Counted from the stretch's first letter, positions 6,592-55,144 are shown. The stretch is DNA of 64,000 bases from Parcubacteria group bacterium LiPW_30 (GCA_007375595.1 VMEP01000001.1:479184-543183), one strand, 5' to 3'. The notes: generated by a model from the sequence alone, not told the origin. Translations and numbers: made by a program.

Positions 6592-6657
6592 TAAGTAAGA
6601 ATTGCAAAGAAATTTATACTGATGTATAAGTAAGAAATTAGTTCTTTTACTTACTTG

Positions 6658-6721
6658 TTTACCACAGCTGGAAGCGCCTCTATCTACTAAATAGTTCTAG
6701 TCATTTCCAGCTGTGGTAAAC
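6658..6721. repeat. 17-bp inverted repeat GTTTACCACAGCTGGAA / TTCCAGCTGTGGTAAAC separated by 30 bp
   Basis: 17/18 bp complementary arms immediately upstream of the GC-rich ORF at 6771. Possible operator or structured leader. Confidence 0.6.
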
Positions 6722-7537: not shown

Positions 7538-10171
7538 ATGAATGGTCGCGGGGTAGTTTTTAGCGTCATTATGAAAAAACCTGAACATAAAGAAATAGAT
7601 AAAATAATCGTCAAAGGGGCGAGAACTCATAATCTTAAAAATGTTACTGTTGAAATGCCACGTAATAAGATGGTTGTTTTTACTGGGTTATCTGGTTCAG
7701 GTAAATCATCTCTTGCTTTTGATACTATTTTTGCTGAAGGGCAACGTCGTTATGTTGAGTCTCTTTCTGCTTATGCTCGACAATTTTTACATCAAATGCA
7801 AAAGCCGGATGTTGATGAGATAATCGGACTTTCACCTGCAATTTCAATTGACCAAAAATCTCGCTCAAACAATCCTCGTTCAACAGTCGCGACTATTACT
7901 GAAATATACGATTACCTCCGTGTTCTTTATGCGCGTATTGGTAAACCATATTGTTTAGTTTGCGGAGAAAAAATTGAAAAACTTACAACCGAGGAGATTG
8001 TAAGTTTTGTTGTTGAGAAAATAGAAACAGCCACTCATTTTAAAGAGAAAAAAGTTTTAGGTGTTAAATATAGTGATGCAACAGTGCAGATTTTTTCTCC
8101 ACTTGTACGCGGGCGAAAAGGGGAATATTACCAAATGCTTTACGACCTTCTTTCTCGTGGTTATACAAAAGTGCGTGTGGACGGAGAATTAAAAAATCTT
8201 CGTGAGAGAATCGCTCTTTCAAAAACAAAAAAACATACGATTGAGGTTCTCGTTGATGAAATTGGTGTAGTTGAATTTAAAGATAATCAAAAACAAGCAG
8301 AGACAAGACTTGCTGAAGCGATAGAGCGCGCAGTTCTAGAATCAGAGGGATTGGTTTCGGGAGTGGTTTCAGGTGAAGAGTTTATTATGTCGGCTAGATT
8401 TTCTTGCCCTAAAGATGGATTTTCTTATCCAGAAATTGAACCGAGATTATTTTCGTTTAATTCGCCATACGGGGCTTGCCCGAAGTGTAATGGTTTAGGC
8501 ACTAAACATTTGTTTGGAGATGAGCCGTGTGATACGTGTGCTGGCGCGCGCTTGAGGCCAGAGGCTTTGAATGTGTACATAGGAGGACCAAAAGGGGTCG
8601 GCAAGAACATAGTTGATTTTACTGATCTATCAATTTTAAAGGCGAATGATTTCGTTAAAGGATTAAAGCTTACAGCTAAAGAAAAAAATATTGCTAGTGT
8701 TGTTTTTAAAGAAATTGAAGCAAGGCTTACTTTCATGCTCGACGTTGGTCTTGATTACCTAACACTCAATCGTCGCGCTAATACGCTTTCTGGTGGTGAA
8801 GCGCAGCGTATTAGGCTTGCCTCACAGCTTGGTTCTCGTTTGGTAGGGGCGTTATATGTTCTTGATGAACCAACAATTGGGCTTCATCAACGCGACAATG
8901 ATCGTTTAATAAAAACACTTCAAGATTTGCGTAATATGGGCAACACAATAATTGTTGTTGAACATGACGAAGATACAATTTTTTCAGCAGATTATCTTGT
9001 TGACATTGGTCCAGGTGCTGGAATTCACGGAGGGAATATTGTTGTCGCTGGTGATCTAGAAGAATTGTTAACCGCCAAGAAAAATGATTCCAAATCTTTA
9101 ACGCTCGCGTATCTTCGTGGAGAGGTAAAAATTGAGGTGCCAGAGGGAAGGCGAGACAAAGACAAAGGAACTCTTCGAATTGCTGGAGGGAAAGTTTTTA
9201 ATATAAAGAATCTTAATGTTGACGTTCCGCTCGGCAGACTTTCTATCGTGACAGGGGTATCTGGTTCTGGAAAATCGTCTTTCCTTTATGAAATTTTATA
9301 TCGCAATTTACAAGCGCGACTTGAGCGCCGTTATCGAAGTAATAAAATCTATAACTGCTCTGGTTTTACTGGAACAGAATACCTTTCGCGCGTGATAATG
9401 ATTAATCAATCTCCAATCGGGAGAACACCAAGGTCAAACCCAGCCACTTATACTGGCTCATTTACGTTTATTCGCGAATTATTCGCTTCGACAGAAGAGG
9501 CACGTACACGAGGGTGGAAGGCCAATAGATTTTCTTTTAATGTGAAAGGTGGACGTTGTGAGGCATGCCAAGGAAACGGAGAAATCGCCGTAGAAATGCA
9601 CTTTTTACCTACAGTTTATGTAACTTGTGATATTTGTAATGGTAAAAGATTTGACAAAGAAACTCTCCATGTTAAATACAAAAAGAAAAATATCCACGAT
9701 ATTTTAAAAATGACGGTTGAGGAAGCACTTACATTTTTTGAAGATATTCCAGCAATTTACGACAGAATAAAAACACTCTCTGATGTTGGGTTGGGTTATT
9801 TGGAACTCGGACAATCAGCAACAACTCTTTCTGGCGGGGAAGCACAGCGTGTAAAAATATCGTCTGAACTTTATCGTCCACATGTTGAAAAAACGATTTA
9901 CCTCTTAGATGAACCGACAGTTGGCTTGCATTACGAAGATGTTCGTAAGCTTATAGAAATTTTGCAAAAACTTGTTGATAAGGGTAATACAGTTGTCGTG
10001 ATTGAACACAATATGGATGTTATAAAAAGCGCTGATTATGTTTTAGATTTTGGACCCGAAGGAGGAGATGGTGGTGGTAATCTTGTTGCTAAAGGGACAC
10101 CGGAAGATATCGCAAATAGTACGAAATCTCATACTGGGAAATATTTGAAAAAAGTTTTACGTAAAAATTAA
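7538..10171 (+). CDS. uvrA: Excinuclease ABC subunit A
   Basis: Two ABC ATPase modules (GLSGSGKSS / [14 protein letters not shown] signatures) and zinc-finger Cys clusters. Alternative start at 7571 (MKKPEHK). Confidence 0.9.
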
Positions 10172-10194
10172 TTTTGGAGGTTAAACCTCCAAAA
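10172..10194 (+). terminator. Palindromic hairpin TTTTGGAGGTT-TAA-ACCTCCAAAA after uvrA
   Basis: Perfect palindrome with a weak T-tract. Possibly bidirectional. Confidence 0.4.
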
Positions 10195-10212
10195 TTAATA
10201 AACTTATGTTGA

Positions 10213-13030: not shown

Positions 13031-13152
13031 TAAGGTAGTATATTCAGGTAGTCGGAAGTTTGAAAGTTTATAAAGTCCATAAAGTACGGAGATAAAAGGT
13101 TTAGTTTTAGGTTACTTTTAACTTTGAGACTTTTTAACTTTTAACTAAAGTA

Positions 13153-13225
13153 GGGCCGTTAGCTCATCTGGTAGAGCACCGCATTTGCAATGCGGGGGTG
13201 GCAGGTTCGAGTCCTGTACGGTCCA
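13153..13225 (+). tRNA. tRNA-Ala (anticodon TGC)
   Basis: Manual fold: acceptor GGGCCGT with G3:U70 (Ala identity), anticodon loop TTTGCAA, T-loop TTCGAGT, discriminator A. No encoded CCA. Confidence 0.9.
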
Positions 13226-13232
13226 CAAAATT

Positions 13233-13257
13233 AATCCGCGTAAGCGGATTTTTTGTT
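13233..13257 (+). terminator. Hairpin AATCCGC-GTAA-GCGGATT plus T6 after tRNA-Ala
   Basis: Stem-loop directly followed by TTTTTTG. Confidence 0.5.
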
Positions 13258-13660
13258 GGAACGTAAAAAACTGCTGGGAGCAGTTTTGCCAGGACTCGAA
13301 AAGCGGAGCGGGGTACCCATGCACCAGCATGGGTCGCGAGCTGCGGACACGAGAAAAATTTTCGACGGAAAATTTTTACTCGCGGAAGAGTCCTGTACGG
13401 TCCACAATGATTCGCTGAGCACATTGTGTAGTTATTTGTGCGAAGCATCATTGTCAGACCTTACTGATGAGAAAGCCGGAGCGCGACGGCGCGAGTCGGG
13501 TGAGAAAGCGAAGAATGAAGCTTTCGCAAGGTCGGACTGAGCGAAGGCGAAGGAGACGGGGTCGCGGGTTTTGCTAGCAAGCAAAAACCTGTGACCGCAC
13601 AAATTTTCAGCAGAAAATTATGGAAAGTAAAAGGTTGCTATTATTTTTAATAATTACTAA
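13258..13660 (+). other. GC-rich, hairpin-dense non-coding region (candidate structured RNA or degenerate integrated element)
   Basis: No convincing ORF in any frame, only overlapping short ORFs. Multiple stem-loops, including CTGCT-GGG-AGCAG, CCCATGC-ACCA-GCATGGG, AAAATTTTC-GACG-GAAAATTTT and GGTTTTGCT-AGC-AAGCAAAAACC. Contains modules shared with other intergenic loci. Confidence 0.3.
13389..13408 (+). repeat. Exact 20-bp direct repeat of the tRNA-Ala 3' end (GAGTCCTGTACGGTCCACAA, also at 13209-13228)
   Basis: Identical 20-mer 160 bp downstream of the tRNA, the pattern expected of an attL/attR-type remnant. Confidence 0.8.
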
Positions 13661-13669
13661 TATAAACAT

Positions 13670-14443
13670 ATGAAAAAAATATTATCTATATTTGCTTTAA
13701 TCCTTATGTTTGCAGCCGCTGAATCTGCCTACGCGACGCTCATTCCTTATACCTCTCAAGAAAGACCGGAATTGGGTGAGATGTACAAAGTTACGCAGGA
13801 AGTCAAAAAGGGCTGGAATCTCATCCCAGCTTTTAATATGAACTACGACCTTTCTGGTTATGACCGAGGTAGTGTTCCGAAATCTGAATACAAAGCGAGA
13901 GGCCCAATATCTTTTGATAGTGAAATACAAAAGGAAAATATACAAGCATTGTTTTACTACTCAGCTAATCAAAATAAATACTTGAATTTTTGGCCAAATG
14001 TAAACGAGGCGTGGGATGGTATTGGAAAAGATGTCTACGCTTTAGGCATAGACCCAAACAATGAACAAGACACAAAAATTCATAATTACCTTTTGACAAG
14101 CGGAATGTGGTTGTACTCCAACAAAGATGGAATTCTGAAATACGAAATGTTTGCGGGGCAAATGAAGGAGTTAATGAACAAAAGAAAATTACTCAAAGGT
14201 TGGAATTTTGTTGTTGTAACTCCTGACATGGGAACAAAAACTTTTGAAGAAATAGTGGGCACATGCAAAATAGAAAAATCATACTACTACGATAGTGTTG
14301 ATACTAAACAATGGATATCTTTTCCGGTTGATCGCATCAAAGACGCAACAGGGATAGTATGGGTTGTGAAAGTTTCAAATAATTGCCAACTTGGAACGAG
14401 TGGTTCCGTCCCTGTTGCGCCATTACCACAATTGCCAAATTAA
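13670..14443 (+). CDS. Hypothetical secreted protein (257 aa)
   Basis: Signal-peptide-like N-terminus (MKKILSIFALILMFAAAESAYA). No recognisable domain. Confidence 0.5.
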   Translation: MKKILSIFALILMFAAAESAYATLIPYTSQERPELGEMYKVTQEVKKGWNLIPAFNMNYDLSGYDRGSVPKSEYKARGPISFDSEIQKENIQALFYYSANQNKYLNFWPNVNEAWDGIGKDVYALGIDPNNEQDTKIHNYLLTSGMWLYSNKDGILKYEMFAGQMKELMNKRKLLKGWNFVVVTPDMGTKTFEEIVGTCKIEKSYYYDSVDTKQWISFPVDRIKDATGIVWVVKVSNNCQLGTSGSVPVAPLPQLPN

Positions 14444-17443: not shown

Positions 17444-17476
17444 ACACCGTCTGTGTAATTTTTAAACAGACGGTGT
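17444..17476 (-). terminator. Strong hairpin ACACCGTCTGT-(11 nt)-ACAGACGGTGT with T-rich run on the minus strand
   Basis: 11-bp perfect stem. The orientation fits a minus-strand transcript, which could be antisense to the small ORF. Confidence 0.35.
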
Positions 17477-17530
17477 AACCAATATTTATTAATGCTTGAT
17501 ACCCTTTATAAATAAAGATAAAAAAATATT

Positions 17531-20884: not shown

Positions 20885-20925
20885 CCCCACCTATAATTAC
20901 GCTATAGCGTAATTATAGGTGGGGG
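20885..20925 (-). terminator. Perfect palindromic hairpin CCCACCTATAATTACGC-TATA-GCGTAATTATAGGTGGG downstream of the minus-strand gene
   Basis: 17-bp stem, with T-rich sequence after it on the minus strand. Confidence 0.55.
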
Positions 20926-21489: not shown

Positions 21490-24324
21490 ATGGAGCAGTA
21501 CGACCACCGAAAAATTGAAAAAAAATGGCAGAAGGTTTGGGAAGAAGAAAATACTTTTGCTACAGACGAAGATTTAAGTAAACCAAAATCTTATATTTTG
21601 GATATGTTTCCATATCCATCAGGAGAGGGTCTTCACACCGGACACGTTAAGGTCTACACGGCGAGTGATATTTACGCACGTTATAAACGAATGAATGGTT
21701 TTCGAGTTCTTCACCCAACAGGGTGGGATGCTTTCGGTTTACCAGCAGAGCGTTTCGCGATAAAACATAAAATTCATCCTCGTGTGGCGGTGGATAATAA
21801 TGTTGCTACTTTTAAACGGCAAATGAAGTCGGTTGGTTTTTCTTATGATTGGGAAAGAGAAATTGATACCACTGATCCAAAGTTTTACAAATGGACGCAG
21901 TGGATGTTTCTTAAAATGTATGAAAAAGGGTTAGCTTACGAGTCTTATCAGCCGATAGTTTGGTGTCCTACGTGTCAGACCGGATTGTCTAACGAGGATT
22001 TGGAGGGCAACGCCTGCGAAATATGTGGAACCGTAGCAGAAAAAAAACTAATGAGACAGTGGGTTATTAAAATTACTGAATATGCAGATAGGTTGGTTGA
22101 GGATTTGGATATTTTGAAAGATTGGCCGGAATCATTTAAAGAAGCGGAAAGAAATTGGATAGGAAAAAGCGAAGGCTCAGAAATAGATTTTAAGATAGAT
22201 GGAATGGATAAAAAATTTACAGTGTTTACGACGCGCGCAGATACCCTTTTTGGTGCGACATATACAGTTCTTTCGCCAGAACATAAATTAGTTGCTGAGT
22301 TAAAATCTAATATTACAAATTGGGATGAAGTTTTGCAGTATCAAAAAATAGCAGGTGAAAAAACGGAGATTGAACGAACATCTGAAGGAAAAGAAAAAAC
22401 GGGGGTGAAATTAGAGGGAATTTTTGCAATTAATCCAGCAAATCAAGACAAGCTTCCGGTTTTTATTGCAGATTATGTTTTAGTTCACTATGGTACTGGG
22501 GCAATTATGGCGGTTCCAGCGCACGATGATAGAGACTATGAATTTGCCAAAAAATTTAATTTACCGATTAAGGTGGTTATCGAGCCTGTTACAGGGGAAG
22601 TTAAGGAAAATGAAGAAAAAAGAAAAAGTATCGTTGCGATAGTTAGAGACCCAAAAAATGGGAAAATCCTATCTCTTAATTGGGGTGAAAAATTTGGTGG
22701 ACAGTTATTTATTGGTGGTGGAATTGAAGACGGAGAAAATGCGGAGAGCACGGCAATTAGGGAAATAAAAGAAGAGACAGGTTATAGCGAGATCCGTTTG
22801 GTTGGAACTTCGGAAACAATTCATCATCATTACTTCGCACATTCAAAAGGGGTGGCAAGGAATATTGATGCTATTGGTTTGCATTTTGAACTAATTGGAA
22901 ATAAACAAGAATTAACATCACAAGACGAATCCGAAAGAGGTAAGTTTAAGGTGGAGTGGATAACAGAAGAGGAGGCCGAGAAAAAAGTGAGTGACCCGCT
23001 ACATCAATATGTGTTTCAAAAATTTATAAAAAATAAAGTGTATACAGGAAATGGAATTCTTACTGAGTCACCTGATTTTAGTGGTTTATCTTCCGAAGAG
23101 GCAAAGATAAAAATAACCAAATTTGTTGGCGGAAAAATGAAAACCACATACAAGCTTCGTGATTGGGTTTTTTCTCGCCAGAGATATTGGGGGGAACCGA
23201 TTCCAATTATTCACTGTGAAAGCTGTGGAGTTGTACCCGTGCCAGAAAAGGATCTGCCGGTTGTTTTGCCGGATGTTAAGGCATATGAGCCAACAGGAAC
23301 GGGGGAATCACCACTTGCTGATATTCCTGAATGGGTAAATACAAAGTGTCCAAAATGTGGAGGTAATGCTAAGCGCGAGACAAATACAATGCCTCAGTGG
23401 GCAGGCTCATCTTGGTATTATTTAAGATTTATCGATCCTAAAAATGATAAGGCCTTAGTAGACGAGAAGAAAGAAAAAAATTGGTCTCCGGTTGATGTTT
23501 ATGTTGGTGGGGCGGAACATGCGACACGGCATCTTATTTATGCCCGCTTCTGGCATAAGTTTTTATATGATTTGGGGATAGTTTCAACCAAAGAGCCATT
23601 CATGCGCCTTGAAAGTGTCGGTCTTATTTTGGCTGGTGGTGGGGTAAAGATGTCTAAGCGTTTAGGCAATATAGTTAATCCCGATGAGATAGTTGAGTTA
23701 TATGGGGCCGACACACTTCGAATTTACGAAATGTTTATGGGACCTTTCGGTCAAGCTAGCGCATGGGACACAAAATCAATAATCGGCCCACGTAGATTTT
23801 TGGAAAGAGTTTGGAAACTACAAGAAAAAATTTCAAGTGATGAAAATTATACCGAAAGTGATAATACGATAATGGTTTTAAATCAGACTATAAAAAAGGT
23901 TGGAGAAGATGTTGAAGAATTTAAGTTTAATACCGCAATAAGCCAAATGATGATTTTAGTGAGCACGCTTGAGTCTGAGGAAAATATCTCTCATAAATCT
24001 TTTAATGAACTGTTGCTTCTTTTATCACCGTTTGCTCCACATTTCGCCGAAGAGTTGTGGGAGATAGTTGGTAACGAAAAATCAATGAATAAGGCTGTTT
24101 GGCCAATCTACGACGAATCTAAATTAACTGGAGGGAAGGTTGTAATTGCAGTGCAGATTAACGGAAAATTGAGAGAGACACTCGAGTTTTTAAGCAACGT
24201 TTCAGAGGATGAAATTAAGGAAGCGGTTATGAATTCTCCTCGTGTTAAATCGTGGATTTTGGATAAAAAAATTAAGAAAACAATATATATAAAAGGAAGA
24301 ATGTTTAGTATTGTTTTGGAGTAA
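21490..24324 (+). CDS. leuS: Leucyl-tRNA synthetase with an embedded Nudix-box domain
   Basis: HTGH and KMSKR class I motifs and CP1 motifs (TRADTLFGATY, GTGAIMAVPAHDDRDYEFA). A roughly 130-aa insert contains a perfect Nudix box, GGIEDGENAESTAIREIKEETGY. Confidence 0.9.
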   Translation: MEQYDHRKIEKKWQKVWEEENTFATDEDLSKPKSYILDMFPYPSGEGLHTGHVKVYTASDIYARYKRMNGFRVLHPTGWDAFGLPAERFAIKHKIHPRVAVDNNVATFKRQMKSVGFSYDWEREIDTTDPKFYKWTQWMFLKMYEKGLAYESYQPIVWCPTCQTGLSNEDLEGNACEICGTVAEKKLMRQWVIKITEYADRLVEDLDILKDWPESFKEAERNWIGKSEGSEIDFKIDGMDKKFTVFTTRADTLFGATYTVLSPEHKLVAELKSNITNWDEVLQYQKIAGEKTEIERTSEGKEKTGVKLEGIFAINPANQDKLPVFIADYVLVHYGTGAIMAVPAHDDRDYEFAKKFNLPIKVVIEPVTGEVKENEEKRKSIVAIVRDPKNGKILSLNWGEKFGGQLFIGGGIEDGENAESTAIREIKEETGYSEIRLVGTSETIHHHYFAHSKGVARNIDAIGLHFELIGNKQELTSQDESERGKFKVEWITEEEAEKKVSDPLHQYVFQKFIKNKVYTGNGILTESPDFSGLSSEEAKIKITKFVGGKMKTTYKLRDWVFSRQRYWGEPIPIIHCESCGVVPVPEKDLPVVLPDVKAYEPTGTGESPLADIPEWVNTKCPKCGGNAKRETNTMPQWAGSSWYYLRFIDPKNDKALVDEKKEKNWSPVDVYVGGAEHATRHLIYARFWHKFLYDLGIVSTKEPFMRLESVGLILAGGGVKMSKRLGNIVNPDEIVELYGADTLRIYEMFMGPFGQASAWDTKSIIGPRRFLERVWKLQEKISSDENYTESDNTIMVLNQTIKKVGEDVEEFKFNTAISQMMILVSTLESEENISHKSFNELLLLLSPFAPHFAEELWEIVGNEKSMNKAVWPIYDESKLTGGKVVIAVQINGKLRETLEFLSNVSEDEIKEAVMNSPRVKSWILDKKIKKTIYIKGRMFSIVLE

Positions 24325-24351
24325 TTCTTCTCTTTTTTGCATTATTACCTA

Positions 24352-24445
24352 CCCGCATACACCCCTAAAATACCTTGCGCAGATTGACGAATCGAGCAGA
24401 GCGAAAATTCAGCAGAATTTTACGTGTGTATTTTAGTGGTGTATG
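24352..24445. repeat. Intergenic hairpin element, copy B (module 1 plus an inner AAAATTC-AGCA-GAATTTT hairpin, closed by an 18-bp outer stem)
   Basis: The outer stem CATACACCCCTAAAATAC pairs with GTGTATTTTAGTGGTGTATG. The first 32 nt are identical to 38652-38683. Confidence 0.5.
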
Positions 24446-24534
24446 AAAAAACGAGTACTTGACCTTTACCTTAATAAATGATAGAAATTAGAACACATAA
24501 GCAGTTAGCCAGTCATTTCTAAGAAAAAAACAAA

Positions 24535-25563
24535 ATGTCACAAATCAATTTTAAGCCAAAACAGGTAGCTAAAAAACTTTTGACCGTTCTTCCAGAGCGT
24601 AATTTTGACGTCATCGTTAATCGCTTTGGTTTAGGGGAATCAAGCGAAGCCAAAACCCTTGATGCTATTGGGAAGAAATATGGTATTACCCGTGAACGCG
24701 TCAGACAAATTGAAAATTTTTCTATTCAGGCTATAAAAAAATCAGAAGTTTTTGCGAAAGAAAAAGAGGCTTTTGAGAACCTATTTTCTGCTATAGAGGC
24801 ATTAGGTGCCGTTGTTTCAGAGGATGAATTACTTAGTCACTTCTCGGAAGACAAGGCAACACAAAATCATATTAATTTCTTTTTAGTTTTAGGTGACGCT
24901 TTTGTTCGCTCAAAAGAAGATAATCATTTTAAACACCGATGGAGTATTGATTCAGATATGTCTGAAAAGGTTCACGCTTCATTAAAAAAACTTTACGAAG
25001 GATTAAGTGATGAGGAGATAGTTCCAGAAGGTGAATTGGTCACACGTTTCCTTTCTCACCTTAAAGATGTTTCAGAAAAATATCGTGATGAAGAGATTTT
25101 AAAGCGATGGTTAAAACTTTCTAAATTGATAGACCGTAATCCTTTTGGAGAATGGGGTCGTTCATCTTCTTCAAACATTAGAGCGCGCGGAATGAGAGAT
25201 TATGCATATTTAGTTTTACGTAGACACGGTTCTCCAATGCATTTCTCTGAAGTTGCAAAAGCAATTACTGCTTCTTTTAAAAAACCAGCGCACGTTGCTA
25301 CTTGTCACAACGAGCTTATAAAAGACAAACGCTTTGTTTTAGTTGGTCGTGGTTTATACGCACTATCTGAGTGGGGCTACAACAAAGGGGTTGTTCGCGA
25401 CGTTATAAAAGAGCTTTTAAAGAAAGAAGGCCCAATGAGTAAAGAAGATATATTGAAAAGAGTTATGAAGGAAAGATACGTTAAAGAAAATACAGTCTTG
25501 GTTAACCTTCAAAATACTAATAACTTTAAGAAAAATAAGAACGGTTTGTACACAGCTGTTTAA
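24535..25563 (+). CDS. Putative DNA-binding protein with an N-terminal sigma70 region-4-like HTH and a C-terminal HARE-HTH-like domain
   Basis: TLDAIGKKYGITRERVRQIE resembles sigma region 4.2. The C-terminal KRFVLVGRGLYALSEWGY resembles the RpoE-delta HARE-HTH. Confidence 0.4.
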   Translation: MSQINFKPKQVAKKLLTVLPERNFDVIVNRFGLGESSEAKTLDAIGKKYGITRERVRQIENFSIQAIKKSEVFAKEKEAFENLFSAIEALGAVVSEDELLSHFSEDKATQNHINFFLVLGDAFVRSKEDNHFKHRWSIDSDMSEKVHASLKKLYEGLSDEEIVPEGELVTRFLSHLKDVSEKYRDEEILKRWLKLSKLIDRNPFGEWGRSSSSNIRARGMRDYAYLVLRRHGSPMHFSEVAKAITASFKKPAHVATCHNELIKDKRFVLVGRGLYALSEWGYNKGVVRDVIKELLKKEGPMSKEDILKRVMKERYVKENTVLVNLQNTNNFKKNKNGLYTAV

Positions 25564-25651
25564 TCTAAAAAACTATAGTAAAAAGGCGGGTCGCTATATG
25601 ACCCGCCTTTTTAACTACCACTTAATTTAATTTCGCGATAAGATATAGAGA

Positions 25652-26830
25652 ATGGTAGATTTTCTTTTTTATATACTGGTAATTATATTTGAATTTATAA
25701 ACAACTCCGCCAATTTTTGGTTGCCGGTAGTCCTTGTTTATGTTTTTTGGAAAGTTTGGATTGCGTATATTCAAGCTGATTGGATTTCTAAACTAAAATG
25801 GATACTTCTTGAAGTTAGATTACCAAAAGAGGTTTTCAAAACTCCAATGGCAATGGAGCTTGTTTTAAATGGGCTTCAACAACCTAGCTCGGGGAATAAA
25901 CTAGATCAGTATTGGAAGGGTCGTGTTCCAGACTGGTTTTCTTTCGAGATTGTTTCTGTTGAGGGATCTATTCGCGTATACATTAGATGTCTTTCAAAAT
26001 ACAAAAATATTATTGAAGCACATGTGTATTCGCAATATCCAGAGGCGATAATTAGTGAAGCCTCTGATTACACAGAAAACATGCCTTGGGATAATAAAAG
26101 CGAAATATCTCTTTGGGGTTCTGAATTTGCGCTTACCCAACCAGATCCATATCCAATAAAAACTTATGTTGATTATGGAATGGATAAGGGCTATGTAGAC
26201 GAAAAACAGCGTATTGAGACAATGGCTCCAACACTAGAGTTTCTCGGTTCTATGGGAAAGGGAGAACAAACGTGGATTCAGATTCTTGTTCGCGCAACGA
26301 GGGGGGAAGGTTGGAAAGCTGAAGGTAAAGAGTTGATAAAAAAGTTAATGCACAGAGACGATAAGGATGATGATAAGGCCGTAACAACAAGATTAACGAA
26401 AGGAGAAACCGATGTTATTAACGCTATCGAAAGAAGCATCTCAAAACCAGCCTTTGAAGTTGGTATTCGGGGATTATATTTTGCAGAAAAAGGTAAATTT
26501 AACCCTGCAAATATTACCGCGCTTTTAAGCACCTTTAAACAGTATTCATCACATAATATGAATGGGTTTAAACCGGGTTATGGACTTACTGTTCTTGATT
26601 ATCCATGGGATGACTTTAGAGATATTCGTAAAAAGACAATTTTGAAAAGTCTCTTTGATTCATATCGACTCAGAGCTTATTTTTATGAGCCATATAAGCG
26701 TAAACCATTTGTATTAAACGTTGAAGAGTTGGCCACTATATTCCATTTTCCAAGTGGAGTTGCTGAGACGCCAACTTTGGCAAGAGTTGATTCTAAGCGT
26801 TCAGAGCCACCAGCAAATTTACCGTTTTAA
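25652..26830 (+). CDS. Hypothetical membrane protein (392 aa)
   Basis: N-terminal TM helices and a large soluble domain with no motif. Confidence 0.45.
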   Translation: MVDFLFYILVIIFEFINNSANFWLPVVLVYVFWKVWIAYIQADWISKLKWILLEVRLPKEVFKTPMAMELVLNGLQQPSSGNKLDQYWKGRVPDWFSFEIVSVEGSIRVYIRCLSKYKNIIEAHVYSQYPEAIISEASDYTENMPWDNKSEISLWGSEFALTQPDPYPIKTYVDYGMDKGYVDEKQRIETMAPTLEFLGSMGKGEQTWIQILVRATRGEGWKAEGKELIKKLMHRDDKDDDKAVTTRLTKGETDVINAIERSISKPAFEVGIRGLYFAEKGKFNPANITALLSTFKQYSSHNMNGFKPGYGLTVLDYPWDDFRDIRKKTILKSLFDSYRLRAYFYEPYKRKPFVLNVEELATIFHFPSGVAETPTLARVDSKRSEPPANLPF

Positions 26831-30707: not shown

Positions 30708-33700
30708 ATGAAAAAAATTTTCTTTTTCTTGTCGTTTCTTTTATTTTTAGTTTCATTCCAAGCACAGGCGCAAACACCAGTTACTGGTATTTCTGACGGT
30801 GGTGTGCCTAAGGATATTCAAATTATTATTGACAGAGATAGTAAGACTTGGACCACAGAGGAAAAAGAAAAGGTTACTGGTTATGTTATTTCAACAAATT
30901 CTCCTAGTGTCGGATCAACCGGTCCTTCTCTTCCCGGAACAGTTAATTGTTTTGATTACTATCATTTTGGGTCTGTTCAAGTTGACTTGTCTACGACACT
31001 TTCCCAAACTGTTCCTGGTGCGACAATCGGTTTTTCTGGGGAAATAAAAAACAATAATGTTTATCCAATTGTAGATGGGCAAGTTTATGTAAAAATATTT
31101 AAGGTAAAAAACGGTGATTTCAACCAAGAGAATGGTTCCGCTCTTGTTGACCAGTTTCCACTTGAAGAAATGTTTGTTATTCCGGCACTCGGTAGTAAAA
31201 AAATAACATTTTCTTGGAACGTTCCAGAAAATGCAGAAGGGGGAGAATATACCGCGGCTTTCTTTTTTCAGACTAGTAAGCGGTACAATCTTTTGGGTCT
31301 TTCTTTTACTGACGACGTGACAGGTAACCAAGTCCACTTTTCTGTGATAAGTGATGATGACAAAGGAACTGTCGCTTTGGATAAAAATACAGTAACTTTA
31401 AATAACCAAACACACCGTTTCGCTGCCTTCCCACTTCGTTTTGCTAAAGATGAAAACGTAAAAGTTGTTGTTCGGATTGTAAACCCAAGAAACGAAGCTG
31501 TTACGGTTCCTGTTGTGTGGAAATTGTATGCATGGGATAGTCTTCGCGAAGAAGCTCTTAGAGACACAAAAATAGAAGCTGTTCAATTAAAACCAAAGGA
31601 GATAAAGGAAATTTCATATACAGCTTTGCCAATTAAGGAAATTGTTTCCTATCTTGTAGTAGAAACCAGTGATCAAGCAAGTAAATCAATTCTTAATATT
31701 CGTTTTGCTCGCGATGGTATAGAAGAAACTAGAATAAATTTTCCAAGCATTGTTGCTTATCCACTGGAAAAAAATAAGGAGAATAATATTTTTTCATGCG
31801 TTCACTCAATTGGCGATGGTGTGGTTAAAGATAATAGTTTGACTTTAACGTTAAGGGACGAGAAAGAAAGGGTTATTCATACTTACACCTATGAAGGGGA
31901 TATAACAAGCGCAATGATGGGAATAAAGGACTCTTTTGTTCCATTAAAAAATTATACAACTTTCTCTCTCACTGCAAACCTTAAACATAAAGGTAAGACA
32001 GTTGAAGAAGTGAGGGTTGTTTATGATTGTCGTGATATTGATGTGAATTCTTGCCCAAAACCAATGAGTACTACGACAAAAGTTATAATTGTGGTGACTG
32101 TCTTGCTATTTATTTTTGCTTTTGGAAAAATTTTGAAAAATAAAGGGATAATACCATTAGCCGTTTATTTACTTATTGTTTTACCTGCTTTGTTTTTAGG
32201 AACACCCAATAGCGCAGAGGCAAAGAGCGTTTCAGTTACGCAAAGTTTGCCAATACTTGGTTTTTACGAAGGGTCTGCTAACCCTGGAGGTAATGGTATT
32301 GGCGGAATATCAACGACAGTGACATATAACGCGACCGTATCTCTTTTTGGGGCAGACCTTGTCGACGGATCCTCAATTCCTTCTGGTTCCACTGTCCGGG
32401 TGCAGTGGGCCCCAGGTAGCAGTAATACTTCATGGGTTGGTACTGGCGGGACATACGATTCTCCTTATGGGCGATGGGATTCTTCGGCTAAATCTTGTAC
32501 GACTTATAGTGATTGTTATGGGATTAACACTATTTACGGTAGTTTTTATCGGATTATATATCAAGGAGATATGGCTATTACCCCACCTTCATTTTCTATT
32601 TCTGGAAGTGGTCTTACTTGTGGGACTACTTTAGGTGGGGTTAGAACAAGTGGCCCATATAATGCTTTTATGTGCCAATATGTTCCATCGCCAACTTATT
32701 GCGCCACCGTGGTGAGCTACTCTCCTTTTTACGCCGATTGTGTGGTTACCGCTCTTTCTGGGGAGTCAATAACAATGAATGTTGCGTACCCTTCTGCAAG
32801 TGGAGCTATGAGAGCTGGGGAATTTGTAAGTTACGACAGCGGATCGACGGCCACATACTCTCGTTCCGGTGGCCTTAGTTTTAGTGTCCCAGCCCAAGCA
32901 ATCTCTTTTTCGTTTGTTGCCGCTCCTCCAAGTAGCCCACCAACAACACCAACTGTTACATATCAAAATCCAAGCCTTGTTAATACTCCCGTTGACTTTA
33001 CTGTTACTTCAACCGATGCTGACGGTGATAATATTAGGTATGGTTTTGATTGGGATCGAAATAATACGATTGACGAGTGGGTCCCTTCCGTTGGATATGT
33101 ATCGTCAGGTACATCGCAAACAGTTAGTCACACATGGAGTACAACTGGGTATAAATATTTTAACGCAAAAACTCAAGATATAAATAATAACTACTCAACC
33201 CAAGTTTTAAAAAGTATTAATATTGTATCTACTATAGTTAACGGTGTGTGTGGTCCAGCTAATGGTACTACAAGATTAACAACCGCTCCGACCTCTGGTC
33301 TTTGTGATGCTGGTACTTTGAGTTTTGTTATGGACGGGGGTACTTATTACAGATGGGATTGTCGCGGAACTAATGGAACAGATTCCGTTTGTTATGCTTA
33401 CAAAAATAAAACACCAACGGCTTCTATTTCTAGCCCTACTACAAACATTACAATAAATACTTCCCAATCACAGCAGTTTACAGGGACGGCTACTGACCTT
33501 GATGCCGATGGGACAATCGTGGCCTATGAATGGAGAACTGGTGGTTGTTCCTCCGGTACGCTACTTAGCTCTTTGGCAAGTTTTGTTCATCAATTTTCTG
33601 CCGGAACATACAGGGTTTATTTTAGGGGTAAAGATGATTCTGGTGTGTGGTCTACTAATTGTCCGAATCGCCTGATAACCGTGAACACTCCAGATCCAAT

Positions 33701-33992
33701 AAACGGAGTTTGCGGGTCTGCAAATGGGGCTGCATCTCAAAACAAACCAACATCGAATCTCTGTAATACAGTAGGATTACCAGGACCCGTTGTCTCGCCG
33801 GAAAATATTAGCGTCTTACCAGAAAGTGGTACTCCTTCTTCATGGACATGGACTTGTGCAGGAGAATACGGAGGAACGGATGTTTCGTGCAGTTCAAATA
33901 CATCTTGTGGTGATAATAAATGTCAGCGAACTAAAGGAGAAAGCCCTGCGACATGTAGAGCAGATTGCAAGGTTAAGTTTTTTGAGTTCTAG
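30708..33992 (+). CDS. Large cell-surface protein (1094 aa) with a signal peptide, a mid-protein TM segment and repeated Cys motifs
   Basis: N-terminal signal. Internal TM VIIVVTVLLFIFAFGKIL...LLIVLPALFLG. Two copies of NGVCG[PS]ANG...W.W.C.G, and PKD-like DADGD motifs. Confidence 0.6.
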   Translation: MKKIFFFLSFLLFLVSFQAQAQTPVTGISDGGVPKDIQIIIDRDSKTWTTEEKEKVTGYVISTNSPSVGSTGPSLPGTVNCFDYYHFGSVQVDLSTTLSQTVPGATIGFSGEIKNNNVYPIVDGQVYVKIFKVKNGDFNQENGSALVDQFPLEEMFVIPALGSKKITFSWNVPENAEGGEYTAAFFFQTSKRYNLLGLSFTDDVTGNQVHFSVISDDDKGTVALDKNTVTLNNQTHRFAAFPLRFAKDENVKVVVRIVNPRNEAVTVPVVWKLYAWDSLREEALRDTKIEAVQLKPKEIKEISYTALPIKEIVSYLVVETSDQASKSILNIRFARDGIEETRINFPSIVAYPLEKNKENNIFSCVHSIGDGVVKDNSLTLTLRDEKERVIHTYTYEGDITSAMMGIKDSFVPLKNYTTFSLTANLKHKGKTVEEVRVVYDCRDIDVNSCPKPMSTTTKVIIVVTVLLFIFAFGKILKNKGIIPLAVYLLIVLPALFLGTPNSAEAKSVSVTQSLPILGFYEGSANPGGNGIGGISTTVTYNATVSLFGADLVDGSSIPSGSTVRVQWAPGSSNTSWVGTGGTYDSPYGRWDSSAKSCTTYSDCYGINTIYGSFYRIIYQGDMAITPPSFSISGSGLTCGTTLGGVRTSGPYNAFMCQYVPSPTYCATVVSYSPFYADCVVTALSGESITMNVAYPSASGAMRAGEFVSYDSGSTATYSRSGGLSFSVPAQAISFSFVAAPPSSPPTTPTVTYQNPSLVNTPVDFTVTSTDADGDNIRYGFDWDRNNTIDEWVPSVGYVSSGTSQTVSHTWSTTGYKYFNAKTQDINNNYSTQVLKSINIVSTIVNGVCGPANGTTRLTTAPTSGLCDAGTLSFVMDGGTYYRWDCRGTNGTDSVCYAYKNKTPTASISSPTTNITINTSQSQQFTGTATDLDADGTIVAYEWRTGGCSSGTLLSSLASFVHQFSAGTYRVYFRGKDDSGVWSTNCPNRLITVNTPDPINGVCGSANGAASQNKPTSNLCNTVGLPGPVVSPENISVLPESGTPSSWTWTCAGEYGGTDVSCSSNTSCGDNKCQRTKGESPATCRADCKVKFFEF

Positions 33993-35988: not shown

Positions 35989-37203
35989 ATGGGATTTTTT
36001 TCAAAAAATGATAAGGAGTTCGTTCTTTTGTTTGATATCGGAAATGGGAGTATTGGTGTTGCTGTCGCTGAAATTTCTGACAATAAAAATATCTTAAACA
36101 AAGCAAAGCTCGTAGAGGTTTATAGAGAAACGATTCCTTTTCAAGAGCATTTACGATTTGATCATTTTACGAAAACTGTTGCTAAGAGTATTGAAAGTGC
36201 CGCAAAGAGGGTGCAAGCTGAGTTAAAATATCCAATTGAAAAAGCATATCTTATTTTGGCTTCTCCTTGGTATGCATCCCAAACGCGAGTGGTTAATTTA
36301 CGCAAAAGCGAACCCTTTACTTTTACTGAAGAATTATTCGCAGAAATGATTAAAAAAGAGAGTGATGATTTTAAGAATGAACATATAAAAGGCAGGTTTA
36401 AGAAGGCCGCAAAAGAAGATAATTTGGTTTTAATTGAGCAACATGTCGTTCAGCTAAAATGTAATGGTTATGAAATTGAAGATCCTTTTGATAAGAAAGT
36501 AAAAACCATTGAAATGCCTTTGTATTTAAGTGTTGCCCCACAAGTTGTTTTGGAGGCGTTTGTTTCCGCTATAAAAAATGTTTTTCCGAAAATTGACATA
36601 GTTTTCGGTACGTTTCCGTTAGCCTACTTTTTCGCAGCTCGAGAACTTTATCCTAAATTTGACGATGCGCTTTTAGTTGATGTGAGTGGAGAGGTGACCG
36701 ATATAGCTTTTGTTTTAAACGGAGCATTACTTGAAATAACGTCTTTCCCTCTTGGGAGAAACACAATTTTTCGTCGACTCTCTTCTTCTTTACATAGACC
36801 AGCAGAAGAAATTATTTCTTTATTGAGCACTTTCTTTACCGGTAAAACCAATAAAGAAATGAGTATTAAGATTGAAAAAGCTTTTGCTGAAGTAGCTGAT
36901 TCCTGGGTGGTTTCGTTTGAAAAAGCGCTCGAGAAATTAGCTGACACGTTTTATCTACCAGATCAGGTTTTCTTGACAGCCGACGATGACATCAAAAAAT
37001 GGCTTGTTGAGGGCATAAAAAAAGAAAGTTTTAGTCAATACGTTATGACTCACACTCCGTTTTCCGTTGTTGATACGAATACTCTTTTTAATGCGCGAGG
37101 AAAGCATATTTTTGAAAAAGGAGAAGTCGATGTTTTTCTTGGAATAGGGGCTTTTTACATTATTCATAATACTAATAAAAATTTTCGTTCGGAGGCGTTC
37201 TAG
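35989..37203 (+). CDS. Actin-fold ATPase-like protein (FtsA/PilM family)
   Basis: FDIGNGSIGVAV phosphate-1-like motif and VDVSGEVTDIAFVLNG phosphate-2-like motif. Glycines are degenerate. Confidence 0.4.
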   Translation: MGFFSKNDKEFVLLFDIGNGSIGVAVAEISDNKNILNKAKLVEVYRETIPFQEHLRFDHFTKTVAKSIESAAKRVQAELKYPIEKAYLILASPWYASQTRVVNLRKSEPFTFTEELFAEMIKKESDDFKNEHIKGRFKKAAKEDNLVLIEQHVVQLKCNGYEIEDPFDKKVKTIEMPLYLSVAPQVVLEAFVSAIKNVFPKIDIVFGTFPLAYFFAARELYPKFDDALLVDVSGEVTDIAFVLNGALLEITSFPLGRNTIFRRLSSSLHRPAEEIISLLSTFFTGKTNKEMSIKIEKAFAEVADSWVVSFEKALEKLADTFYLPDQVFLTADDDIKKWLVEGIKKESFSQYVMTHTPFSVVDTNTLFNARGKHIFEKGEVDVFLGIGAFYIIHNTNKNFRSEAF

Positions 37204-37221: not shown

Positions 37222-38583
37222 ATGAAGGAAAAGAAAATTCTAAGTGATGTGGTAATACGAAATACAGCTGGAAGAAGACCACTTTCCGACGTCATTCAAA
37301 GAAATAATCATAAACAACAAACACCTATAAAAAACAGGGAGGTGATAAAACCTGTACAGAAAAAGAAAGAAGTTGAGTATGTTATTAAAGAACCAACTAT
37401 CCACCGAGAAAATGCTACTGTTGGAGACCTTAATAAAACTAAAAATCTTGTTAAAAAAACAGCTTGGGTTTCAATTCCAGTCGGCATCATTTTGGTTGTT
37501 TATCTCGTAATATCAATTTTATTTTCTGGCGCAGAACTAAAAATTACCCCAAAGTCTGAACAGCTTGAAGTTTCAGCTTCACTAAATGCAAAAAAGGGTG
37601 ATGCAAAAACAAGTTTTGCTTTTGAGACAGTAAGTTTATCTGAAGAGGGAAGTAAACTCGTTGCCTCAACTGGTACTAAAGACGTTTCAGAAAAAGCTAC
37701 TGGCCGAGTTGTTATTTATAATGCCTATAGCACTGCAACTCAGAAATTAATTAAAGACACTAGATTAGAAACTACCGACGGAAAAATATACCGTATTGTT
37801 TCAAACATTGTTGTTCCAGGTCTTAAAACTGTTAATGGAGAGACAATCCCCGGTTCAGTCGAAGTTTCGGTATATGCTGACAAGCCCGGCGAGCAATACA
37901 ACATAGGACTAGCAGACTTCACAATTACAGGATTTAAAGGTGACCCTAGGTACAGTAAATTCTATGCACGCTCGAAGGGGGAGATAAAAGGAGGTTATGT
38001 TGGCAGTGTTCAAGTGGCATCACCAGACGCTGTCAATGCGACCAGAAATGAACTTAGAACAGTGATTAAGGACTCACTATTAAGACAAATTTCATCACAA
38101 ATACCAGAATCTTTTGTCTTATTTAAAGAGGCGTCAGAAATTACCTTCGAGACAAAAGACGATCTAAAGAATGAAAGTGGAGTTATTGTCAAAGAGGAAG
38201 GAACTTATACGGGAATACTTTTACCAAAGAATTTGTTGTCTGAAGAAATTTTAAAGAAGGCCAACTATTCAATGAAAGATGTTGATGCGACAACTCTAAA
38301 AAATACAGAAAGCTTAGTTTTTATGTTTGATGGTGCCAACGAGTCACTACTTAAAGCAACAAGCATAAGCTTCACGCTTAAAGGAACAGCAATAGTAGAA
38401 GCTCTGGTTGATACTGAAAAATTGAAAAAAGATATTGCCGGAAAACCAAGAAGTGATTTTAATAAACTACTTGCAGATTACAAGGGGATTAAGACCGCAA
38501 CACTTTCTATGAATCCTTTCTGGGCTCGATATATTCCAACAAATGAAGAAAAGATCACTATTGTCCAAACTAGCGATAGATAG
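37222..38583 (+). CDS. Hypothetical bitopic membrane protein (453 aa) with a large extracytoplasmic domain
   Basis: Basic N-terminus, a single TM (AWVSIPVGIILVVYLVISILF) and a soluble domain with no motif. Confidence 0.45.
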   Translation: MKEKKILSDVVIRNTAGRRPLSDVIQRNNHKQQTPIKNREVIKPVQKKKEVEYVIKEPTIHRENATVGDLNKTKNLVKKTAWVSIPVGIILVVYLVISILFSGAELKITPKSEQLEVSASLNAKKGDAKTSFAFETVSLSEEGSKLVASTGTKDVSEKATGRVVIYNAYSTATQKLIKDTRLETTDGKIYRIVSNIVVPGLKTVNGETIPGSVEVSVYADKPGEQYNIGLADFTITGFKGDPRYSKFYARSKGEIKGGYVGSVQVASPDAVNATRNELRTVIKDSLLRQISSQIPESFVLFKEASEITFETKDDLKNESGVIVKEEGTYTGILLPKNLLSEEILKKANYSMKDVDATTLKNTESLVFMFDGANESLLKATSISFTLKGTAIVEALVDTEKLKKDIAGKPRSDFNKLLADYKGIKTATLSMNPFWARYIPTNEEKITIVQTSDR

Positions 38584-38651
38584 CTACAAGTTAATGAGTT
38601 CTTTTTAAGGTAAGACGTTTTTCCGTACGCACATTTCTGGGTATTTTATTT

Positions 38652-38683
38652 CCCGCATACACCCCTAAAATACCTTGCGCAGA
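38652..38683. repeat. Intergenic element copy C: 32-nt module 1 (CCCGCATACACCCCTAAAATACCTTGCGCAGA), identical to 24352-24383
   Basis: Exact 32-mer shared with locus B. A longer variable body (to about 38850) contains the module CATTACGGAGCGCGACGG, shared with loci A and D. Confidence 0.5.
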
Positions 38684-38866
38684 CTTGTGAATTTTCTTAA
38701 AAATTCCCCTTTTTCCATTTTAAAAACATTACGGAGCGCGACGGTATTTCGTATCTAAATACCCATAAGATACAGCTGAAAGACATTGCGGAATGCGGCG
38801 GCATGAGCATAGCAAAAATTTAGCAAAGTTTTATGCGTGTCTTTCAGATGTATCTTAATAAGAAAT

Positions 38867-43573: not shown

Positions 43574-43602
43574 AATAGGAATTTTGTCTTTTGAACCCCT
43601 GT

Positions 43603-43690
43603 ATTCGCCATTAAAATACATTACGGAGTCTGACGAGGCGAGTATAGTAAATTTTCAGCAGAAAATTATACGCGTATTTTAATGGCGAAT
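43603..43690. repeat. Intergenic hairpin element, copy D (17-bp perfect outer stem ATTCGCCATTAAAATAC/GTATTTTAATGGCGAAT enclosing CATTACGGAG... and an AATTTTC-AGCA-GAAAATT hairpin)
   Basis: Perfect 17-bp inverted repeat. The inner 21-mer AAATTTTCAGCAGAAAATTAT is identical to 13601-13621. Confidence 0.5.
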
Positions 43691-43701
43691 ATTAAAAATA
43701 A

Positions 43702-43729
43702 TTGACAATTATAAATTATTCGGTATAAT
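43702..43729 (+). promoter_or_regulatory. sigma70-like promoter TTGACA-16 nt-TATAAT upstream of dnaK
   Basis: Consensus hexamers immediately downstream of element D. No CIRCE element found. Confidence 0.55.
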
Positions 43730-45695: not shown

Positions 45696-45703
45696 AATCA
45701 ACA

Positions 45704-45740
45704 AAAAAACTACTTTTTTGATAAGTAGTTTTTTTGTTTT
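45704..45740 (+). terminator. Intrinsic terminator after dnaK (AAAAAACTACTT-TTTTGAT-AAGTAGTTTTTT)
   Basis: Stem-loop with a long T-tract. Confidence 0.6.
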
Positions 45741-49086: not shown

Positions 49087-49417
49087 TAGTTATTTTTTAT
49101 CGCTAGCTTTAACCTTGACTCTCAATATAAAAACAAAAAAATTTAAGCGGAATATTGAAGACTTTACTTGTAGTGAATGTGGTTTTTTTGTTGAGGGGAA
49201 TGGTTATACAAACCACTGTCCAAAATGTTTATGGAGTAAACACGTTGATATAAATCCAGGAGATAGAAAATCCGATTGTTTAGGATCTATGGAACCAACT
49301 GGGGTTGAGGTTAAGGCGGGGGAGTATGTAATTACACACCAGTGTATTAAATGTGGTTTTGTTCGAAAAAATAAAACCACAAAAGATGACGATTTTAATT
49401 TATTGTTGAACTTATAA
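49031..49417 (+). CDS. RNHCP-domain zinc-ribbon protein
   Basis: CSECGF...NHCPKCLW...CIKCGF. The 5' part of the ORF overlaps the upstream acyltransferase. The true start is probably internal, for example the TTG near 49119. Confidence 0.45.
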   Translation: MIIKQRYKKLWILSRKIFNSYFLSLALTLTLNIKTKKFKRNIEDFTCSECGFFVEGNGYTNHCPKCLWSKHVDINPGDRKSDCLGSMEPTGVEVKAGEYVITHQCIKCGFVRKNKTTKDDDFNLLLNL

Positions 49418-50523: not shown

Positions 50524-50623
50524 TTAAATCTCCTCGTGACCTACCGGTTAAGAAATCCCAACCTTTTAATAGGCCATATAAAGCATGACGTTTTATTTAT
50601 ATTATGTCAACGCCTAGAATCCT

Positions 50624-50664
50624 CGGTATTTTTACGGTATAATTTCGACATGAATTCGCACCGA
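50624..50664 (+). repeat. Left copy of a roughly 40-bp direct repeat covering the promoter-like TATAAT and the first codons of the TPR gene (partner at 55104-55144)
   Basis: GTATTTTTACGGTATAATTT[C/T]GA[C/T]ATGAATTCG[C/T]ACC, with 3 mismatches over about 40 bp. Confidence 0.6.
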
Positions 50665-55085: not shown

Positions 55086-55103
55086 TATGAGGGTTACAAT
55101 CTT

Positions 55104-55144
55104 TAGTATTTTTACGGTATAATTTTGATATGAATTCGTACCAA
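55104..55144 (+). repeat. Right copy of the roughly 40-bp direct repeat. It carries a duplicated start (MNSYQPVMFF-stop, 55130-55162) of the TPR gene
   Basis: Matches 50624-50664. The remnant 10-codon ORF ends in TAG. Confidence 0.6.

Follow-up and report, generated by a model that had tools for sequence, protein, structure and literature searches.

What kind of element is the hairpin that separates the end of leuS from the next promoter (24352-24445) in a 64-kb stretch of Parcubacteria DNA, the whole of which is called the window in the following? The first-pass annotation had described it as one of four related loci (A to D), and had left the choice between a structured small RNA, a REP/MITE-like repeat with terminator or insulator character and a binding site for a regulator.

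Copies and fragments in the window

Three intact copies (B, C2, and D), all on the + strand, were found in the window, together with two fragments (C1 and X) and a composite, degenerate cluster 3' of tRNA-Ala. Each intact copy has a copy-specific stem of 18-19 bp, termed P1, bearing a head of fixed length, 55 nt, with two helices (P2 and P3). Bit scores are those of the covariance model R1 (CM).

24356-24445, + strand: copy B, intact (96.4 bits, E 8.5e-25)
24356-24373, + strand: P1 5' arm of copy B
24374-24428, + strand: 55-nt head of copy B
24428-24445, + strand: P1 3' arm of copy B
38766-38857, + strand: copy C2, intact, head 38785-38839 (98.6 bits)
43601-43692, + strand: copy D, intact, head 43620-43674 (101.8 bits)
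38641-38683, + strand: fragment C1, leader, B-type 5' arm and first 10 nt of the head
38715-38744, + strand: fragment X, 5' arm CCATTTTAAAAAC and head ending after the P2 loop (ATTACGGAGCGCGACGG)
13290-13395, + strand: variant copy A1, P1 CAGGACTC/GAGTCCTG, P2 with an extra hairpin, P3 loop GACG
about 13455-13640, + strand: composite or degenerate copy A2, P2 module 13477-13495, P3 module 13600-13622
24375-24428, + strand: match to the relaxed 54-nt core pattern
38786-38839, + strand: match to the relaxed 54-nt core pattern
43621-43674, + strand: match to the relaxed 54-nt core pattern

The core pattern, derived from an alignment of the middle parts of B, D, and the C2 region, has exactly three matches in the window against 0.00 expected (0 in 100 shuffles). 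B and D share the architecture X-TAAAATAC...GTATTTTA-X' around about 50 nt, with the inner hairpins AAAATTC-AGCA-GAATTTT in B and AATTTTC-AGCA-GAAAATT in D, as first annotated. Their outer arms are complementary, with one C.U mismatch in B (CATACACCCC/GTGGTGTATG) and perfectly so in D (ATTCGCCAT/ATGGCGAAT). The difference between these two pairs of arms had been taken as compensatory covariation. Covariation is real, but it is shown only by the family alignment described below; the arms of B and D are unrelated arms of different element lineages and not substitutions at the same locus. The stem of C2 (TAAGATACAGCTGAAAGAC/GTCTTTCAGATGTATCTTA) also consists of arms of its own, unrelated to those of the other copies.

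Locus C had been recognised by a 32-mer shared with B and by a shared module. Both are present (38652-38683 is identical to 24352-24383 in 32/32 positions, direct-repeat family D1, and CATTACGGAGCGCGACGG lies at 38727-38744), but the complete copy C2 had been overlooked, and the recognised pieces belong to truncated copies: C1 is a truncated B-type copy, and the CATTACGG piece is fragment X, another truncated copy. Locus L111 of the nearest genome has a more decayed counterpart of C1 at the same position and a full-length counterpart of X. Locus A likewise carries the shared modules (GGAGCGCGACGG at 13478-13489, and the 21-mer 13601-13621, identical to 43649-43669), but it is not one copy: diverged or nested copies, A1 and A2, are combined there. 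The 3' arm of A1 is part of a 20-nt direct duplicate (GAGTCCTGTACGGTCCACAA, 13388-13407) of the tRNA-Ala 3' end (13209-13228). In A2 about 100 nt of GC-rich inserted hairpins separate the P2 and P3 modules; local CM matches were of 16.6 and 21.2 bits, with an additional P3-like match at 13566-13590. The GC-rich 400 nt 3' of tRNA-Ala have a fold z of -9.0, and the CM sees isolated P2 and P3 modules only. For A1, to which the CM gives no full-copy score, we infer the module-by-module reading.

The genes flanking the window copies encode LeuRS, a sigma-like protein, GrpE and DnaK, with tRNA-Ala at locus A, which agrees with the first-pass annotation for LeuRS, GrpE, and tRNA-Ala. B, C2, and D are located 27-182 nt 3' of stop codons and 9-13 nt 5' of the next -35 box; these boxes belong to the next genes. 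For B the LeuRS stop is 30 nt upstream and TTGACC 13 nt downstream, and D has the grpE stop on one side and the dnaK promoter on the other. Each window copy is in sense orientation to the gene that precedes it, and 7/7 copies and fragments share one orientation. A C-rich box precedes each hairpin (CCCG at 24352-24355, and 43596-43600 and 38762-38765; types CCCG, CCCCTGT, and ACC), and an A-rich run follows it (24446-24458, 43693-43703, and 38858-38866), with the -35 box of the next gene 9-13 nt further on. This C-rich leader and A-rich run are the arrangement of this lineage and are not family-wide.

Plain perfect hairpins of 13-18 bp, without a head, were also found after genes (20885-20925, 10167-10199, 45700-45738, 17444-17477, 6657-6721, and 25576-25612). 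Only 25576-25612, and in addition 13233-13250 after tRNA-Ala, look like a canonical U-tract terminator. LeuRS (21490-24324) has a NUDIX domain inserted after the editing domain (aa 378-508), and the same insertion was found in a distant Parcubacteria relative (L089:3-2291). A 52-nt direct repeat, 85% identical (50615-50666 and 55095-55146, family D4), carries the promoter-like box TTTTTACGGTATAAT. Several large ORFs had no Pfam or NCBIfam match (25652-26830, 30708-33992, 35989-37203, 37222-38583, and 49395-50342 on the minus strand), one of them of 1094 aa.

Architecture and extent of the family

B, C2, and D each fold alone into the same three-way junction (z = -7.4, -5.8, and -6.0, respectively). 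In P2 a G-S-A/G-A internal loop separates 3-4 bp from a second run of 4 bp, which is capped by a GNCG loop; in P3 an A is bulged out between 3 bp and 7 bp, and the loop is AGCA. A one-genome-per-species collection was then searched with a pattern relaxed further, which specifies about 19.5 bases and would give about two matches by chance, and the family was found to comprise at least 114 loci. Except for one chance match (Burkholderiales, L049), the matches listed are all from Patescibacteria of the Parcubacteria/Paceibacterota type (Nomura-, Giovannoni-, Zambryski-, Yonath-, Kaiser-, Adler-, and Taylorbacteria and Minisyncoccia, some labelled generically). One contig (L095, CAYHUV010000063.1) is labelled Woesearchaeota archaeon; at the pepN locus, where the element lies, it is 68-74% identical to the Patescibacteria-type L025, and it is therefore probably mis-binned.

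The alignment contains 116 usable copies among the matches listed and is free of gaps in the head. P2 and P3 were 99% paired, in copies found by an exact pattern that selects intact heads, and 34 of 38 pairs had changes on both sides. The covariation score was 0.678, compared to 0.21 for shuffled alignments and 0.10-0.19 with the partners slid, and RNAalifold on the family alignment independently gave the same three-way junction. The covariance model suggested by the first-pass annotation was built (R1) and scanned, without the bias of the pattern, over the same loci and 80 grpE loci; the additional copies ranged from 112 down to about 30 bits, that is from intact to decayed, and many copies are thus decayed. 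In 13 of 100 loci a second copy directly adjoins the first, mostly inverted, which is a BIME-like arrangement. Adjoining copies were seen at L057, L091, L037, L024, L075, L060, L050, L030, L020, L036, L042, and L074, and loci A and C of the window are such clusters.

Stem and head together form the unit, a hairpin of about 90-190 nt in which P1 is long. Among the matches listed P1 ranges from 10 to more than 40 bp (median about 28) and the whole unit from 74 to 187 nt (median 116). Semi-conservation of P1 is confined to its proximal 10-14 bp (5'-UUUU-N-AAAAR-C / G-YUUUU-N-AAAA-3'), while the distal part is lineage-specific, with positions beyond -15/+11 carrying about 0-0.3 bits. N1 (position -3) pairs with K (core 23) as C-G, A-U, or U-A. 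About a quarter of the copies, from GC-richer genomes, carry one more conserved internal loop (5'-..CGAAGG / CCGAG..-3') with another stem outside it. In this extended subfamily (L004, L017, L022, L025, L074, L095, L096, L098, L103, L105, and others) the loop reads 5' AACUC-GUCGMA-GG / CC-GAGAAA-GAGUU 3' and the rods reach about 150 nt. Several of these copies start with CGTC, the tag of CGTC-class REPs/RPEs (PMC3733652). Conservation is inverted relative to a usual MITE: the centre is conserved and the termini are free.

The paired cells were also examined for non-Watson-Crick combinations. P2 had 7 G.U versus 2 A.C in 928 cells, and P3 had 7 versus 2 in 1044 cells, counted without the 74-98 pair. 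Such near-pure Watson-Crick helices are unusual for an RNA family with so much covariation, and fit DNA palindromes under hairpin-templated correction or a single-stranded DNA intermediate. With DNA parameters both strands fold equally well. As RNA, the minus strands of B, C2, and D fold less well, and the + strand fold was the more stable in 111 of 114 heads. Further, G74-Y98 is a G.U pair in 45 of the 116 copies among the matches listed, and 100 P1 wobbles pair on the + strand versus 55 on the - strand. From the G74.U98 pair, the bias of the P1 wobbles and the stability of the + strand fold we conclude that one defined strand matters; single-stranded DNA and RNA both fit.

The cores of hammerhead, twister, twister-sister, and pistol ribozymes did not fit the consensus, nor did a K-turn in the P2 internal loop, the AGCA motif of SRP domain IV or group II intron domain V; a self-cleaver would be incompatible with copies inside essential mRNAs. 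The Rfam scan that had been proposed matched no known RNA family, either at the gathering threshold or at E<=10: with Rfam 15 the whole window gave tRNAs only, 24300-24540 gave no match at E<=10, 13100-13700 gave noise only, and 24 related loci gave no additional families. In the literature no paper was found that links Parcubacteria or Patescibacteria to palindromic repeats, an absence that is not proof of novelty, and the core strings of the element occur in no paper. The element is apparently an undescribed repeat family of Parcubacteria (candidate phyla radiation).

Genomic sites, turnover and search for a mobiliser

The orientation of the copies relative to neighbouring genes is about random: among the matches listed, the orientation versus the flanking ORFs was -- in 24, ++ in 20, -+ in 13, and +- in 7. 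In the window each copy follows a gene 3' end, as first annotated, but this does not hold elsewhere. One copy fills the divergent spacer between dprA and serS (L001), another lies antisense between tandem genes (L005), and a third lies antisense within the dnaK 5' UTR (L061), where the same site is empty in L113 and L155. Two copies are located between tRNA genes, sense in tRNA-operon spacers (L035 and L038). No insertions in rRNA genes were seen; the one locus with such a gene in its vicinity is L021, 2.5 kb from a 16S end. Matches to sigma70-like promoters were no commoner than in shuffles on either side of the element, and a promoter of its own or an outward promoter was therefore rejected.

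All copies had been described as intergenic, which is true of the window, but 34 of the 116 copies among the matches listed lie in-frame inside long ORFs of real genes, in about 20 different host genes. A copy was counted as genic when the ORF was open for at least 60 codons on each side. Pfam domains flank or span the insert in all ten hosts tested, i.e., LeuRS, UvrD/PcrA, RecG, PepN (aminopeptidase N), ArgRS, a phosphoglucosamine mutase-like protein (PGM), a class-V aminotransferase (IscS-like), KsgA, ComEC, and RecJ, and the host ORFs of these ten are genuine proteins. One sense frame accounts for 27 of the genic copies and six are antisense. The genic copies must be translated, adding about 35 aa to the host protein, and the sense-frame peptides resemble [IL]AQ[RA]DG[AP]S[IR]A.xQQxxM[RC]. 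Of 82 non-genic copies, only 20 keep frame 0 open over about 102 nt. Because stops in this frame are so frequent outside genes, the element is not a coding module, the idea that the encoded peptide drives conservation was rejected, and the peptide is a by-product, with the genic copies being filtered survivors.

Four MAGs carry the KsgA insertion at one and the same site, and L112 lacks it. The empty version reads ...ILNF-TAKQK-YKII..., and the occupied version is 34 aa longer. This insertion is old, yet it is still a good palindrome in four genera. In UvrD, insertions were found at two different sites in different genomes.

In close relatives of the window, sites are occupied, empty or occupied by another hairpin. 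In L115, where grpE is 87% and dnaK 94% identical in nucleotides to the window and the promoter is nearly identical, the grpE-dnaK spacer has a different hairpin, with arms and helices differing by many compensated changes. In L116 (GrpE 76% identical in amino acids) the spacer has no hairpin: the stop codon is followed by 18 nt and then the -35 box. The nearest genome, CAZOFV01 (L033, L082, L102, and L111), is 91% identical to the window in the infA region. Two of its loci (L033 and L111), neither of them the leuS site of the window, carry a B-type hairpin with the same pair of arms, and at the site upstream of infA (L111) the window has C2 instead, together with the B-type 5' fragment C1. 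It follows that whole hairpins are copied to new places and that resident hairpins are replaced up to the stem base. Insertion of a head into a pre-existing, site-specific hairpin was rejected, since B-type arms are found at different loci, the window and L115 have different arms at the grpE-dnaK site, and L116 lacks a hairpin at that position.

No transposase-like family was enriched in the 8-kb neighbourhoods of the at least 114 loci, where the top recurrent neighbour was EF-G. No transposase or integrase was detected by Pfam/NCBIfam in the scanned ORFs of the window, including those next to tRNA-Ala, and a cognate Y1 (HUH) transposase was found neither among the recurrent neighbours nor in these ORFs. 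A phage vector was rejected, as the viral contigs of IMG/VR contained 0 copies. In the test for target-site duplications the distribution of longest common substrings between flanks was close to that of the control, and a small excess was due to a weak subterminal motif, GAGCGA/CGAAGG; the empty sites, at 70-83% identity, are too diverged for defining junctions. Terminal inverted repeats common to all copies were absent, the arms being lineage-specific, and the search for a MITE parent element found none.

Explanations, known systems and significance

We consider it probable, at about 0.65, that the loci belong to a non-autonomous, selfish palindromic repeat family of Parcubacteria/Paceibacterota. 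This is based on the random orientation, the in-frame genic copies, the occupied, empty, and swapped sites, and the relocation, clustering, nesting, and decay of copies. Of the readings offered by the first-pass annotation, it is the REP/MITE-like repeat family that gains support, from the at least 114 Parcubacteria loci and from the presence/absence and replacement polymorphism. The element would move as a folded single strand, and DNA is favoured because the stems are almost purely Watson-Crick and the two DNA strands fold equally. The conserved head and proximal stem would be the cis-signal for a trans-acting enzyme whose gene lies elsewhere, and the stems would stay near-perfect via hairpin-templated correction, selection for mobility, or both. 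Precise excision and reinsertion, by analogy with IS200/IS605-RAYT, would explain hairpin swapping in the absence of target duplications. Stems at gene ends would be tolerated and may be co-opted as transcript-end or insulating hairpins upstream of the next promoter; judged from their positions, such a secondary role of the window copies is plausible.

Several observations speak against a selfish repeat. In the ranges searched there was no mobilising enzyme, no shared terminal inverted repeat and no viral copy. The unpaired head bases and the helix lengths are conserved across a phylum-level clade, and this conservation and the old, intact KsgA palindrome exceed the needs of a decaying parasite, partly due to ascertainment by the exact pattern. 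The strand asymmetry (G74.U98, the P1 wobbles, and the 111/114 + folds) fits RNA or a single defined strand, and all seven window copies and fragments share one orientation. A bolder reading, to which we give a minor share of belief, is that the head is the handle of an undescribed, Parcubacteria-specific hairpin-mobilising system, or else a domesticated RNA module with a host function. In the former case the branched head would be recognised by a structure-specific enzyme that copies or excises hairpins of any stem sequence and reinserts them precisely, which would account for swapped hairpins at fixed sites with neither terminal repeats nor target duplications. If true, this would be a mode of transposition or retro-transposition with no characterised counterpart.

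A functional structured RNA transcribed from the + strand, either a multi-copy small RNA or a cis-acting module, is rather unlikely. In the cis version it would be a 3'-UTR or spacer element that is processed (e.g., by RNase III on the long stem) or protects the transcript, with the junction as a protein- or RNA-binding head. The very strong covariation and fixed helix lengths, the better + strand RNA fold, the G74.U98 wobble (45/116), the 100 versus 55 P1 wobbles, the sense orientation of the window copies to the upstream gene and the sense copies in tRNA-operon spacers all speak for such an RNA. It is, however, at odds with the nearly random orientation relative to genes, the copies within ORFs of essential genes in both orientations, the empty or swapped sites in close relatives, the missing promoter enrichment on both sides, the near absence of G.U from P2 and P3, the frequent decayed and truncated copies and the failure to match any Rfam family even at E<=10. 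The near-pure Watson-Crick stems, the DNA-parameter fold equally stable on both strands and the orientation independent of genes would suit a site in DNA, i.e., a cruciform or hairpin bound by a host protein (a nucleoid protein, topoisomerase, replication or repair factor or regulator) with a function for the chromosome. REPs bind gyrase, IHF, and Pol I, which counts in favour of such a site. We hold it to be improbable, since the copies have no fixed position relative to promoters or genes, occur inside coding sequence and are dispensable in close relatives, and a duplex site would have no need of asymmetric unpaired bases and + strand-biased wobbles. Both the small RNA and the regulator site of the first-pass annotation are thus disfavoured.

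Least credible is a hairpin that serves primarily as transcription terminator or insulator between genes. The placement of B, C2, and D, 27-182 nt past stop codons and 9-13 nt before -35 boxes, and the plain long hairpins in equivalent positions after other genes led in this direction. However, the stems are AU-rich, of 18-19 bp, and followed by A-rich sequence, unlike the G+C-rich stem and U-tract of an intrinsic terminator; the missing U-tract behind B, C2, and D speaks against the terminator part of the first-pass annotation, while canonical terminators stand nearby at 13233-13250 and 25576-25612. Copies also lie in divergent promoter regions, a 5' UTR and genes, the conserved 55-nt head is superfluous for termination, and L116 does without any hairpin at the grpE-dnaK site.

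Read as a selfish repeat, the element works, by analogy, most like the Rickettsia palindromic elements (RPEs) among known systems. RPEs insert in-frame in Rickettsia genes (PMC10969869), and RPE-1 to RPE-10 (Ogata 2000/2002) are summarised in PMC10969869 and PMC3733652. Both are repeated palindromes of about 100-150 bp from reduced genomes of small size, both occur between genes as well as in-frame in housekeeping genes unrelated to one another, which yields short translated inserts, and in neither case is there a linked transposase, the mechanism of RPE mobilisation being likewise obscure. A palindrome in-frame within functional protein genes, which defines RPEs, is what was found here (34/116 of the listed copies, and 10/10 hosts). 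The likeness is one of behaviour, and membership is not claimed: the phyla differ, the Parcubacteria family spans a phylum-level clade versus one genus, and its apex is a strictly conserved three-way junction on a mostly lineage-specific stem. Moreover, RPEs are described as encoding a conserved peptide, whereas non-genic Parcubacteria copies often have stops in that frame.

The REP/BIME/REPIN-RAYT elements (IS200/IS605-related) also form hairpins, occur in clusters of alternating orientation and are occasionally intragenic. REP mobility is thought to use folded single-stranded DNA with precise excision, which would also explain hairpin swapping at fixed sites. REPs, however, are simple hairpins of 20-40 nt with a GTAG/CGTC end tag and a sequence conserved within the genome, whereas the Parcubacteria unit is 90-190 nt (74-187 nt over the matches listed) and has a branched head; B, C2, and D are tagless, GTAG is absent, CGTC occurs in one subfamily only, and no RAYT was found near the copies. 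Genes for replication and repair are notable among the hosts of intragenic REPs, and target palindromes also receive REP insertions (PMC3733652). The bcr1 repeat of the Bacillus cereus group is a mobile repeat with a structure kept by compensatory changes (PMC3184786). Like the present element it is non-autonomous, of about 155 nt, non-conserved in genomic distribution and branched in a cruciform-like manner; it differs in having 5-bp direct repeats at its ends, where no target duplication was found here, and in being confined to one species group, and in-frame intragenic copies are not a hallmark of bcr1.

MITEs such as Correia/NEMIS and ERIC are likewise short, multi-copy, and non-autonomous with presence/absence polymorphism. 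Their transcripts form long hairpins that are possible substrates of RNase III/E, and ERIC can be intragenic. The present element resembles them as a short, non-coding, multi-copy sequence with insertion polymorphism, but MITEs have family-wide terminal inverted repeats from a parent IS and target-site duplications, whereas terminal inverted repeats common to the copies and a parent IS are lacking here and the termini are the most variable part around a conserved centre. Integron attC sites are bulged hairpins beside gene cassettes, with R''/R' core sites (RYYYAAC...GTTRRRY) at their base. They were rejected as a model, since B, C2, and D have no such motifs at the stem base, the neighbours are housekeeping genes, and it is the apex that is conserved and the base that varies. 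By their defining features the Parcubacteria element is thus not counted among RPE, REP, or bcr1. It is probably a palindromic mobile repeat, and it differs in architecture, with a conserved junction of fixed length in the centre and free termini.

Parcubacteria genomes are among the smallest and most streamlined of bacterial genomes. The finding places a probably parasitic palindrome in such genomes, both in spacers and in core genes, including those for aminoacyl-tRNA synthetases, UvrD, RecG, RecJ, and KsgA. In-frame "protein-coding palindromes" have precedents in Rickettsia (RPEs) and, in the case of REPs, in a few further bacteria; the present family adds a second reduced-genome lineage, from an unrelated phylum. 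The well-supported three-way junction is a bait for finding the mobilising or binding factor. The element can mislead screens for non-coding RNA and gene callers, it marks hot spots of recombination and rearrangement in MAGs, and it explains many CPR-specific protein insertions.
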